From positions 1 through 30,149 of IMG/VR virus record IMGVR_UViG_3300047557_004385: a stretch of 30,149 nucleotides of DNA; one strand, 5' to 3'. Origin of the DNA: a virus. Taxonomy: Duplodnaviria > Caudoviricetes. The notes beneath the pieces were generated by a model. The model was not told where the DNA came from and did no database searches. It saw only the letters and a list, made by a program, of their open reading frames with translations. Positions within the stretch are counted from its first letter, which is position 1, and every line of letters starts with the position of its first letter. Positions 5,446-13,751 of the stretch are shown piece by piece. The translations under genes and the position numbers were made by a program.

Positions 5446-6231
5446 TTAGAAGAAACCACCCTGTGCATAAACGTGAGCACCTGGGGTGTAACCAGAAATG
5501 TTAGGGCCGTCAGGGAAGACCCCAACGTAAATACGATCGCCTCGCTCCAGGTAGATGCCCTTGTTCCGCAGGGGAGCTGTTGTTCCTAATCCAGTGGTAT
5601 TCCCTGCCTGTGGCATCGGATAAGCAAGCTGAGGCATTGCGTCTGCACAATCTACCTGGCCGCTGTTGGCAGGGACGGTCTTGGAAAAAAGGATTCGATA
5701 GTCACCACTACCAGGGATAGGAGTGGTGGTGCCACGGGTGTGGTAGAAAACAAAGGTTACAGCAGGTTGCGTACCGTAGTTAGAACCGTTGTAGGTAAAG
5801 CCACTTGCGCCGGAGAACACAAGGCTTGTGTTAACACCTGTCAGTGTTGTGGCACCCGTGTACGTGTAATAACCGTAGCCGCTCATTGGAGCGGTACCAA
5901 GAACACCAGTGTTTTGAATAAAAACAATCTGGCCACTGTTCAGGGAAATTACGGTGCCAGAAGTACCAGAGCTAATGGTGTAATCAGGATCACGATATTT
6001 ATCGTTTCGGACAATTGTGATGGAGTCAACTACACCACCGTTGTTGGTGTCATCGCTCAGTTCAGCGTCCATATCAACGAGAATGGACGGGGCCTGACCA
6101 CCCTGCACAAACAATGTATTGCTGGATGCACTGCCAACAGTTTGCGTTGTTACCCGAACGGAATCAAATAACGGACGATCCGAAAATACGGGCTGCTTGT
6201 TCGTACTAGTACTGGCCGTTTGACTAAACAC
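5446..6231 (-). CDS. Probable virion structural protein, beta-rich (start uncertain)
   Basis: T/G/S/V-rich 261-aa ORF in the morphogenesis operon with a GTG start. Confidence 0.7.
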   Translation of the reverse strand: MFSQTASTSTNKQPVFSDRPLFDSVRVTTQTVGSASSNTLFVQGGQAPSILVDMDAELSDDTNNGGVVDSITIVRNDKYRDPDYTISSGTSGTVISLNSGQIVFIQNTGVLGTAPMSGYGYYTYTGATTLTGVNTSLVFSGASGFTYNGSNYGTQPAVTFVFYHTRGTTTPIPGSGDYRILFSKTVPANSGQVDCADAMPQLAYPMPQAGNTTGLGTTAPLRNKGIYLERGDRIYVGVFPDGPNISGYTPGAHVYAQGGFF

Positions 6232-6248
6232 CCTATCTATGTTACTTT
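6220..6248 (+). promoter_or_regulatory. Sigma70-like promoter for the free-standing HNH gene
   Basis: TTGACT (6220-6225), 17-nt spacer, TACTTT (6243-6248) with extended TGn. Confidence 0.55.
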
Positions 6249-6280: not shown

Positions 6281-6832
6281 ATGGCACAAACAACTTTTCA
6301 ATGCGCTCAATGCGGGAAAACCTATACAAGAGAAGGCAATACTGCAGCCTGGCACAGAAAAAGATTGAAAGAAAAGGGTTACACTTTTTGCTCTAAAGAA
6401 TGTGGCTCTTTTAAGCATGGCGGGCATAAAAATAAAACACCTGAATATGGCTCATGGTGTGCAATGAAAAATCGTTGTAACAATAAAAAACATCCGTCTT
6501 ATGAGCGATACGGTGGCCGAGGCATCACCTACGATCCCCCATGGCAAAAATTTGAAAACTTCTTCGCTGACATGGGAGAAAAACCGGATCCCAAGATGGA
6601 ACTTGAAAGAATTGATAACAATAAAAATTATTGTAAAGACAATTGCAGGTGGGCGACGCACAAAGAGCAAACAAGAAATCGTGGCGGCAAACGCGCAACA
6701 CGACTTTATACGTTCAACGGAGAAACTTTATGTATTGCCGATTGGGCTAAAAAAATTGGAATATCTCCTCAATCAATGCAAAAAAGATTAAATAAAGGGT
6801 GGCCGCTTGAAAAAGCTTTTGCACCAAAATAA
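6281..6832 (+). CDS. Free-standing HNH-family homing endonuclease, antisense to the operon
   Basis: N-terminal CxxC...FCSxxC finger; YGGRGI..W..FENFFADMG..LERIDNNKNYCKDNCRWAT..EQ.RN core; C-terminal HTH (WAKKIGIS...RLNKGW). Confidence 0.85.
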   Translation: MAQTTFQCAQCGKTYTREGNTAAWHRKRLKEKGYTFCSKECGSFKHGGHKNKTPEYGSWCAMKNRCNNKKHPSYERYGGRGITYDPPWQKFENFFADMGEKPDPKMELERIDNNKNYCKDNCRWATHKEQTRNRGGKRATRLYTFNGETLCIADWAKKIGISPQSMQKRLNKGWPLEKAFAPK

Positions 6833-11662: not shown

Positions 11663-13653
11663 TCAGACGGTACCGTCATCAGACACGTAGCTGAAAGCGG
11701 TGGTCACGAAGTCCTTGTTCAGGATTTCGAAACCAGCGTACAGCTGCCAAATCAGAATGATGAAGCGGCTGAAGTCGTCGTTGTTGTTGATGAGCACCTG
11801 GGCGTTCGGACCACCGATGCCCACGCCAATGGCCTGAGGACCAAAGAAGAAGCCCTGGGCAACTTCCTGAGCAGCATAGGTACCGCCGGTACCAGCAAAG
11901 GAAGTGGTGATGGACTTGGTGGGGAAGTTGGTCGATTCGAAGAACTTCACACCTTCGAACTGAACACCAGTCGGCATGACAGGCTCACCAGCCAGGAAGT
12001 AACCCTGACCAGCCTGGGGACCCATGTAGAAGCTGGCGTTGTTAGGCATCATGGGGTTGCCCATGTACATGCCTTGACCAGGATTGCCGCTGTAACGAGC
12101 AATCTCACGGAAGTCAGGATCACGACGCAGGTGCATCATGAAGGTAGGATCGCAAATGCAGCGATACAGACCATCGGAGAAGGTCGGCACGTTGCGCTTA
12201 CGCAGATCCTTCACCACGGTCAGCAGGTCGGTACGAACCGAGAATTGCTGCAGATCAGCGGTGTATTCGGTCGAAGTGTAGGTGATACGACCGGTAGAAT
12301 CTTTAGCCTTAGCACCAGGGAAGTAGTAACCACCCTGAGTAGAGGAGGCTTGACCGTTGGCTTCGGCTTTGGCGAGTTCATCAATGAACACGCGGTCACG
12401 CCAACGGCGGTAGTCGTCAAGCAGCGTCAGGCTACCGATCGACTGGTGGAACATGTTCAGGTTACCGGTGTCCAGCAGAAGACGCTGGGCGGTAATCAGA
12501 GTTTCACGAGCAATCTTGAAGGTGCTCGGTTGAGTCGGATCACCCGGGTCGGCAGGACCGGTGTACTCCTTCAGCACAACAAGCACCTTCTCTTTGGTGA
12601 TGTTGCGGCTGTTGGCAGTACCGATCGTCTGGTCAGCCACACGCTCGCGGCTGTCCTTCGTGCCGGGGGTACCCCAGAACTTGTAGCGATCTAACTGAAC
12701 AGTTTGACCGGGTTGACGAGTAAAGTCGTGGACGACCACAGGCTCTACCGCCATTTCTGCAATGTAAGCAGGGTGGGGGCGGTAAAGCTCCGCACCCAAA
12801 ATCTTTGGAAAGTCGTTCTCCTGGTCTCCAGTTTCTTGGAGGGGTGGACTATCTCTTCATCCCTGTGGGATGCCGGACGCTGAATCTGGTATTACGTAAC
12901 AAGATCGTGTTACACCCAGTAGTCTCTGCACCTTCCAATCACGCTTGATTGGCTTGGCTCAGGATTACCCTCGACTATACGTTAGGGCTTCCCTGAATTC
13001 ATCCGGTTTGCACTCATCGATTGCTCGGTGAGGTGACAACGTTGAGCGTTCAGCTGAGGCATGCTATCTTTTGGAAAGCTGTTTATAAACAACATGGACC
13101 CAAAATTAGTTCCAGGATTTGGTAATCTTTACTTAACGGAAGAAGGTAAAGCTTTTGAAAAACAACTTGATCCCGATAATCAAGAATATTTTCAAGAGAT
13201 TCCCATTCGTTCAACCAGTGTTTATGACCGTATTTCAGTTCTTGTTAACGGAAAGAGAAAGCGTTTTCATCTTCACGTCTTGATGGCAGTTGCATTTTTG
13301 GGTTTAGATCTGCGTTCACATGGAACACATAACTTTTCCCTGCAAGTAGATCACAAAGATAACAACAAGAGAAATAATCAAGTTGATAATCTTGAAATCG
13401 TTACCAAACAAGAAAATTTAACAAGGGCCTGGAAAACGGGTTGTTACAAGAACAATGGTTTTGCCAGCAAAGGGAAACCGAAAAAAACTTTAAGAAAATT
13501 TTCTTCGGATGACGTGGCTCAAATCAAAGCTTTAAAAGAGGCAGGTCTGTCGTATAGAAAGATCGCCGAAAAGTTTAACTGTAACCACGGAGCTATTTAC
13601 CAAATCTTGAAGGGCAATACCTACCAGGATCTGAACTAGCTATCAATGAACAC
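11663..13653 (-). CDS. Major capsid protein, intron-split: join(13653..13642, 12817..11663), 388 aa
   Basis: SD GGAGG at 13668-13664, then GTG TTC ATT GAT | AAC GAC TTT CCA AAG ATT TTG GGT, giving MFIDNDFPKILGAELYRPHP. Position after portal and scaffold, size and codon bias all fit an MCP. Confidence 0.88.
13042..13070 (+). promoter_or_regulatory. Promoter for the intron-encoded HNH
   Basis: TTGAGC, 17-nt spacer, TATCTT with extended TGn, upstream of ATG 13094. Confidence 0.5.
13094..13639 (+). CDS. Intron-encoded HNH homing endonuclease (antisense)
   Basis: NUMOD4-like start (KLVPGFGNLYLTEEG); LHVLMAVAFL...VDHKDNNKRNNQVDNLEIVTKQEN core; C-terminal HTH. Alternative start at 13061. Confidence 0.9.
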   Translation: MDPKLVPGFGNLYLTEEGKAFEKQLDPDNQEYFQEIPIRSTSVYDRISVLVNGKRKRFHLHVLMAVAFLGLDLRSHGTHNFSLQVDHKDNNKRNNQVDNLEIVTKQENLTRAWKTGCYKNNGFASKGKPKKTLRKFSSDDVAQIKALKEAGLSYRKIAEKFNCNHGAIYQILKGNTYQDLN

Positions 13654-13751
13654 TTTGGTTTATCCTCCAGTGTCAGTGTTTTTATCGGGTGAAAGATAAA
13701 GACACGTGTGTCTTATCTAACACAAATTTTAGCAGTTAATAACCTTTTTAG

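Follow-up and report, generated by a model that had tools for sequence, protein, structure and literature searches.

An endonuclease gene lying antisense within the intron of a phage capsid gene is already known, since a case of this kind has been published. The capsid gene of mycobacteriophage LittleE holds an intron with gene 14 on its bottom strand, and splicing was established by RT-PCR and protein sequencing (PMC3706429, Pope et al. 2013). According to the part of that account available, LittleE resembles the locus described here in having a probable group I intron of about 820 nt near the start of the mature capsid protein, an endonuclease on the opposite strand and intron-less alleles. 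It differs in that its gp14 is LAGLIDADG-like with a C-terminus of the HNH family, whereas our enzyme is an HNH protein of the I-HmuI type, and in that our gene sits in P1, after a four-codon exon, and shares bases with the P1 extension. Closer in enzyme type are I-HmuI and I-BasI from Bacillus phages, of the same family and domain order and also intron-encoded, and I-PfoP3I of cyanophage Pf-WMP3, of the same family, which nicks 4 nt from the insertion site (PMC3017599 and PMC3428280, in the extracts available). All three belong to DNA polymerase introns, whereas the present gene is antisense, in P1 and in a capsid gene, with a predicted activity; I-PfoP3I, furthermore, lies in P6a of a subgroup IA2 intron, with its ribosome-binding site in the intron RNA.

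Regulation offers another set of parallels. In the td intron of phage T4, I-TevI represses itself through a site matching its homing site at 15 of 20 positions (PMC2988022). A similar look-alike (18 of 27) overlaps the endonuclease promoter inside our intron, yet I-TevI is a GIY-YIG enzyme in sense orientation, read from a T4 late promoter, with binding and repression both shown, whereas the operator presented here is predicted only. In nuclear rDNA, the group I introns encoding I-DirII and I-DsqI carry these genes antisense with their own opposite-strand promoter; P1 is a listed insertion loop, and antisense interference is treated as a risk that needs avoiding (PMC9548176, PMC3679873 and PMC3073962, as far as their available sections go). 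Those are His-Cys box enzymes transcribed by RNA polymerase II, with a separation between nucleolus and nucleoplasm, while phages have no such compartments. How the RNAs are kept apart is left open for the nuclear introns in the available part of PMC9548176, and the locus described here poses the same question: a protein gene lies antisense within an intron of the phage's most abundant transcript, with no nucleus to separate the two RNAs. In phage AR9, g190 has its own early promoter inside the intron of a late gene (extract of PMC5312081), a case set apart by start sites that were mapped and by polymerases encoded in the phage. Beside the T4 capsid gene, segD offers a free-standing antisense example (extract of PMC2988022). 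The portions available of PMC3984707, PMC11835236 and PMC8557907 mention neither an antisense phage case nor the present element, and the open-access main texts searched hold no account of this intron of the S-EIV1 lineage, which catalogues such as PMC11835236 may list.

The window, that is, the whole stretch of 30,149 nt analysed here, is a 30-kb virus record, 38% complete. Its minus-strand genes comprise a terminase, a portal-like gene and head genes. The ORF at 12817-11663 shares 86% identity with an ORF from Synechococcus phage S-EIVl, and the phage hosting the intron is an S-EIV1-like cyanophage. The features of the MCP gene and its intron are as follows.

11663..12817, minus strand: MCP exon 2, 384 codons (PHROG 1357, major head protein, E 3e-16)
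12818..13641, minus strand: group I intron of 824 nt, inserted after MCP codon 4 (RF00028 match and intron-less alleles)
13642..13653, minus strand: MCP exon 1, four codons, joined to exon 2 in 70/80 relatives
13664..13668, minus strand: GGAGG, Shine-Dalgarno-like motif of MCP, identified by sequence; most intron-less alleles carry the same motif
13676..13705: hairpin of the MCP 5' leader, a weak terminator-like site when read on the plus strand
13726..13734, minus strand: predicted extended -10 of the MCP promoter, TGC-TAAAAT, with a predicted start site at about 13719

The intron matches the whole of Rfam model RF00028 on the minus strand (13066-12825) with 88.6 bits, against a cut-off of 50 bits, and the Rfam scan found no other family at the locus. 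Its limits, 13642|13641 on the 5' side, after GTG TTC ATT GAT, and 12818|12817 on the 3' side, are set by the intron-less alleles: among viral contigs, the 80 best-matching MCP loci include 70 that join GTG TTY (A/C)TN GAY directly to exon 2 exactly there, and the remaining ten have an insertion at the same point. Removing the intron restores the host reading frame and yields an MCP of 388 aa; exon 1 ends in U and the intron in G, the terminal G at 12818. Gene callers overlook the four-codon exon and begin MCP 10 residues late. In S-EIVl itself (L081, KJ410740.1), 60784-62010 is annotated as a minus-strand hypothetical gene plus a short plus-strand piece; the whole MCP matches there at 86%, and the region is likely misannotated.

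A set of 107 complete introns (76 unique, the window being L162), all at the MCP codon-4 site, was extracted from MCP loci and from those found by searching with the HNH protein and a 65%-identical relative. Some contigs were fetched twice, and most loci were fetched by the HNH protein, which biases the set toward intact genes. With 107 copies, 70 empty alleles and one ORF-less derivative, this is a widespread and well sampled natural case. The same site is occupied in MCP genes that are only 70% identical. An exact search for the core pattern found one locus only, identical to the window, and the nearest annotated blastn match to the intron is the psbA intron of S-CBWM1. The intron presumably resembles those of cyanobacterial tRNA genes (subgroup IC3, tRNA-Leu type). 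A further group I intron, devoid of an ORF, lies around MCP codon 35-39 in one relative that has the codon-4 intron too (L186:1836-2136, minus strand).

An earlier note on this DNA had described an intron with an antisense HNH gene in its P1 loop. This anatomy is confirmed, while the pairing register, the promoter and the gene start needed correction. The pairing elements, and a circular product to which we return below, are the following.

13639..13645, minus strand: 5' strand of P1, UGAU|AGC, across the 5' splice site; 7 pairs in 76/76 introns
13631..13636, minus strand: 5' arm of the P1 extension (clamp), paired in 76/76; the plus strand is the last two HNH codons
13048..13053, minus strand: 3' arm of the clamp; the plus strand is promoter spacer, and the circularisation site is 13049|13048
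13034..13041, minus strand: internal guide sequence, CGUU for P10 and GUCA for P1, assigned by P10 pairing
12818..13048, minus strand: shortened intron circle of 231 nt, the ribozyme core lacking the HNH loop, observed for close relatives

The end of exon 1 and intron positions +1 to +3 pair with the guide (13034-13040) in all 76 unique introns, with the U-G pair at the splice site (-1) in every one and, at exon position -4, U-A in 57 and C-G in 19. The first three P10 pairs are present in 76/76 and the fourth in 75/76; pairing in P10 is by itself a constraint on the opening bases of exon 2. The clamp GUUCAG/CUGAAC, formed by +6 to +11 with 13048-13053, is paired in 76/76, with compensatory changes at +6, +7, +10 and +11, most of which trace to one division between two clades, besides a few additional switches (L133, L173, L186). 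An 11-nt pairing of the intron start had been proposed; only its 6-bp clamp covaries, and the AGC part gives way to a separate helix. The AGC/GCU register holds at +3 in only 57/76, while AGC at +1 to +3 pairs with GUU of the guide in 76/76. The loop, put at about 580 nt, measures 577 nt (13630-13054). Energy folding of the 856-nt precursor failed to yield P1 for the window, with pair probabilities below 0.25, and the ribozyme core folded alone has a z of -2.0; P1 is assigned because covariation and duplex folding support it.

Sense orientation is generally taken as the rule for endonuclease genes of phage introns. Here the gene runs the other way, with the following features.

13094..13639, plus strand: HNH endonuclease gene, 181 aa, I-HmuI type (Pfam HNH_3 and HTH; match to I-HmuI, 1u3e)
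13042..13047, plus strand: -35-like hexamer TTGAGC (TTGACT in a divergent clade), within the P1 internal loop of the intron RNA
13062..13070, plus strand: predicted extended -10 of the HNH promoter, TGC-TATCTT, on grounds of conservation; predicted start at about 13077
13069..13095, minus strand: look-alike of the intron-less exon junction, 18/27, a candidate autorepression operator

The protein has a NUMOD4-like N-terminus, an HNH core (D86, H87, N99, N108) and a C-terminal helix-turn-helix. Among PDB entries, I-HmuI (1u3e) is matched alone by profile (E 7e-15) and alone at E<0.001 by fold, using a structure model of pLDDT 86. Residues H61, H87, N94, N95, N99 and N108 of the active site are present in 70/70 unique genes and D86 in 69, and for 52 close relatives compared with the window the median dN/dS is 0.082; by this measure the gene is under purifying selection. 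Its GC content is 37%, against 55% for exon 2. Searches made so far found no close HNH homologue outside this intron site. As for relatives at 46-57% identity, their genomic context is known from L186 alone, because the 53%-identical homologue P0101, used as query, led to six loci with short HNH matches only.

The stop codon does end 2 nt from the intron edge as had been noticed, TAG closing at 13639 on the plus strand in 106/106 ORF-bearing introns, among which 105 were parsed (all but L134) and encode 176-181 aa. The ten introns found through MCP comprise six whole ones with an intact ORF, one without ORF and three cut by contig ends. The ORF had further been said to fill the whole interval up to the guide; it is indeed antisense in the P1 loop, but about 40 nt of promoter and leader precede it before the clamp is reached. 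Its start is most likely at 13094, where the codon is ATG or GTG in 55/55 unique close relatives. An upstream ATG at 13061, giving 192 aa, was rejected: it is lost in 11/55 and indels follow it.

A promoter of the form TTGAGC-N17-TATCTT had been read on the plus strand. The two hexamers are there (13042-13047, 13065-13070), but they match only 8 of 12 consensus bases, go unlisted by a promoter scan and taken alone do not exceed chance; the exact TATCTT occurs in 1/55 relatives. What is conserved is an extended -10, TGnTAnnnT, with its defining bases (TG at 13062-63, T and A at 13065-66, T at 13070) kept in 53-55 of 55 and its free positions in 35-38. It lies 15-32 nt before the start codon in 53 of 56 unique leaders, the other three showing, by eye, TAnnnT without TG, and the spacer to the -35 is 17 nt in 48 of the 56, 15 in four and 10 in one. 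This pattern is retained across lineages at 54-95% protein identity: in divergent clades the -10 persists, while the -35 improves to TTGACT or shifts to a distance of 15 or 10 nt. The promoter had also been placed over the clamp. Its spacer does contain the 3' arm of the clamp and its -35 abuts the guide; the -10 and predicted start, however, lie in the loop.

Upstream of MCP, 107 of 110 unique regions contain TGnTAnnAT, compared with 6% of shuffles. This extended -10 is convergent with the HNH promoter and of the same class, but closer to consensus; both look like host sigma-70 promoters as defined by the established consensus. Neither is in the promoter-scan list, conservation being the support for both. 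The window's record, at 38% completeness, shows no sigma factor, which gives no ground for inference on timing. The terminator-like site at 13676..13705 would stand 37 nt past the HNH stop on the plus strand; two such sites were found and 1.2 are expected in shuffles, so that this is not beyond chance. Independent expression of the nuclease from the plus strand, as the earlier note supposed, appears likely in view of the conserved extended -10, the purifying selection and the lack of any sense-strand route to the ORF.

The leader of the nuclease gene holds a further signal. Positions 13095-13069 agree with the 27-nt intron-less junction at 18 bases, a score that 46 of 2000 dinucleotide-shuffled versions of the intron attain (P ~0.02). 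Leaving aside the two junction halves, the window contains no better match. It covers the end of the -10, the predicted start site and the leader. The likeness was noticed after the fact. The best site falls at the same place in 49/76 introns, and in 15 related representatives the P value for the leader alone ranges from 0.001 to 0.21, L186 having no look-alike; an 18-nt version is weaker (P<0.05 in 3/16). The motif GGAA-N4-(G/T)TT is kept in 52/56 leaders, and a 12-bp palindrome inside the look-alike, at 13080-13091, accounts for part of the same conservation. By analogy with I-TevI, we propose with moderate confidence that the enzyme would bind this candidate operator on its own promoter. 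On the plus strand, the guide itself (13034-13041) resembles the exon junction and stands directly before the HNH promoter, which may explain the backwards entry of the gene. The leader of the L186 gene has a Shine-Dalgarno motif and a TTG start.

RNA evidence comes from six metatranscriptome runs, as assembled contigs of relatives without strand. In X7 and X10, which belong to different studies, contigs join the terminal G at 12818 to 13048 with no shared bases, extending 65 and 30 nt on their short side, at low depth (2.9 and 9.9); the joint was not seen in X5, X8, X9 and X20, where contigs can show presence but not absence. Excised group I introns yield 5'-truncated circles as known products of a normal side reaction (PMC13168695, in its available part). 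The joint is what such a 231-nt circle would leave, which makes it likely that close relatives splice in nature; exon-joined contigs, for their part, are indistinguishable from intron-less alleles. The cut follows UGAA, a mimic of P1 with A rather than U opposite the guide G, and the mimic UGAA|CGC is kept in 80/107 introns. In an ORF-bearing intron, the cut at 13049|13048 would release the P1 loop in its entirety, an RNA complementary to the nuclease mRNA; the comparison is with RNA contigs only, and the circle's precursor may have been ORF-less. Another X10 contig (depth 2.5) runs from the intron 3' end, 12818-12859, into sequence that does not resemble MCP exon 2; it may come from a related intron inserted elsewhere.

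The distribution of the intron is patchy. On an MCP tree of 136 rows (FastTree; exon 2 minus its first 90 nt), its state changes 22 times, at least 13 of the changes being forced by well-supported branches, against a shuffled mean of 45. Intron-plus and intron-minus alleles occur at a third-position distance of 0.018. Over 47 intron-plus loci, third-position distance in HNH is unrelated to distance in distal MCP (Spearman 0.05, Mantel P 0.2) and follows that of the first 15 codons of exon 2 (Spearman 0.28); diversity at codons 5-14 is 0.24 with the intron and 0.42 without, and equal further on. Low flank diversity and uncoupled distances fit what co-conversion would give, and the intron is likely a mobile homing element, although repeated loss or ordinary recombination would produce a patchy presence as well. 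Leu at codon 3 or Thr at codon 5 is found in 27 of 70 empty alleles (among them L004, L007, L008, L019-L022 and L026-L030) and in 0 of 91 intron-plus junctions with exon 1 visible; such alleles are possibly resistant to homing. In L055 (1346-1621), an intron of 276 nt without ORF keeps the last HNH codons and groups with ORF-bearing introns, and a contig of run X8, with a joint 13057->13622, shows a similar deletion; loss of the gene is hence derived and tolerated. In both a short AU hairpin replaces the gene, and in L055 the changed stop codon lets the P1 extension pair further.

We consider it probable, taking all this together, that the MCP gene carries a group I intron, likely mobile, with an intact HNH gene antisense in its P1 loop, and that the nuclease is expressed from its own weak promoter, is held down and does not time capsid synthesis. 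The MCP precursor would form P1, P10 and the 6-bp extension, a pairing supported by covariation, shutting the loop out of the core, and would then splice, an activity for which the circle junction speaks in relatives only. A host polymerase of sigma-70 type would read the nuclease from the conserved extended -10 built into the P1 region. The enzyme, as I-HmuI does, would nick the intron-less MCP start of co-infecting relatives, repair then copying the intron in, as suggested by the enzyme family and the patchy distribution. Its output would be limited through binding to the homing-site look-alike, in the manner of I-TevI, and also by two RNAs complementary to the nuclease mRNA, namely the excised loop and the convergent, stronger transcript of MCP. 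The antisense overlap would thus be a cost of insertion, tolerated by the pair.

The earlier note went further, proposing that the nuclease mRNA could, as a natural antisense RNA, hold back the formation of P1 and thereby time capsid synthesis; taken as a function, this would make it a regulator kept by selection. To be sure, such interference is physically possible: with the stop 2 nt inside the intron in every ORF-bearing copy, the mRNA must cross the 5' splice site, and it is predicted to be complementary to that site, to exon 1 and probably to the MCP ribosome-binding site. Two convergent promoters of the same class stand about 640 bp apart, and regulated splicing has been reported for a cyanophage psbA intron (PMC5931967, in the part available). 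The mRNA would, however, miss the guide and the 3' arm of the clamp, both upstream of its predicted start. The MCP promoter is of the same class and nearer to consensus, so that MCP RNA probably dominates; it is more likely that it outnumbers and silences nuclease RNA than the reverse. An effect kept across the lineage is not what is found, the antisense RNA being absent from the 70 intron-less alleles and from the ORF-less intron. Since most close alleles lack the whole unit, a timing function is unlikely, and since intron presence is patchy, with frequent gains and losses, and an ORF-less derivative persists among ORF-bearing introns, retaining the gene's last codons, capsid timing cannot need this RNA. 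We find no support for the proposal, rate it as very improbable, and see in these results no new way of timing capsid synthesis. Selection may have acted in the opposite direction: the excised intron would cut itself at 13049|13048 and release a linear antisense RNA of about 593 nt that shuts the nuclease off once capsid transcription starts. The circle joint in two of six runs and the retained P1 mimic speak for such a switch, as does the released piece, which would cover the whole ORF and its predicted leader. Yet truncated circles are a normal side reaction (available part of PMC13168695), the shallow contigs are compatible with ORF-bearing or ORF-less introns, and the circularisation site is also constrained as clamp and promoter, all of which makes a selected switch unlikely. 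A broader version, in which a single 60-nt stretch would serve as guide, clamp, nuclease promoter, operator and circularisation site of a self-limiting cassette, the loop released by the ribozyme silencing the nuclease before packaging, also seems to us rather improbable; if true, it would mean an antisense regulator made by a ribozyme.

The operator is where an alternative weighs most. The leader might instead be bound, at its palindrome, by a repressor of host or phage origin, or form a short RNA hairpin ahead of the start codon; its likeness to the homing site would then be due to chance, and self-regulation would be absent. The symmetry TGTT-N4-AACA or GTTGT-N6-ACAAC, with balanced changes in both clades, and the modest P values of the look-alike agree with this. 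By contrast, GGAA-N4-(G/T)TT lies partly outside the palindrome, matches exon 2 and keeps its spacing in nearly all leaders, whereas its position relative to the -10 and the start codon is variable; we regard chance likeness as possible, though on balance doubtful. As to the protein, strong purifying selection over two deep clades, and occupation of one intron site in such diverged MCP genes, could be explained if it were a splicing helper or cut elsewhere, in an intron inherited vertically with frequent loss. A full HNH active site is nonetheless retained, ORF-less introns persist, HNH and distal MCP distances are uncoupled, and the searches made place close homologues at this intron site; we therefore hold a role other than homing to be highly unlikely.

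In L187 and L188 (2300-3640), a terminase-like gene is split by two group I-like introns, the first with an HNH gene on the sense strand; at 31% identity to the intron gene of the window, in sense direction and in a terminase-like region, this is a different element. The window itself has a second HNH gene at 6281-6832 on the plus strand (PHROG 3377), free-standing and antisense to its neighbours. Before it, at 6220-6248, stands TTGACT-N17-TACTTT preceded by TG, and an inverted repeat surrounds the -10; the intron gene in L173 has a promoter of this same design.
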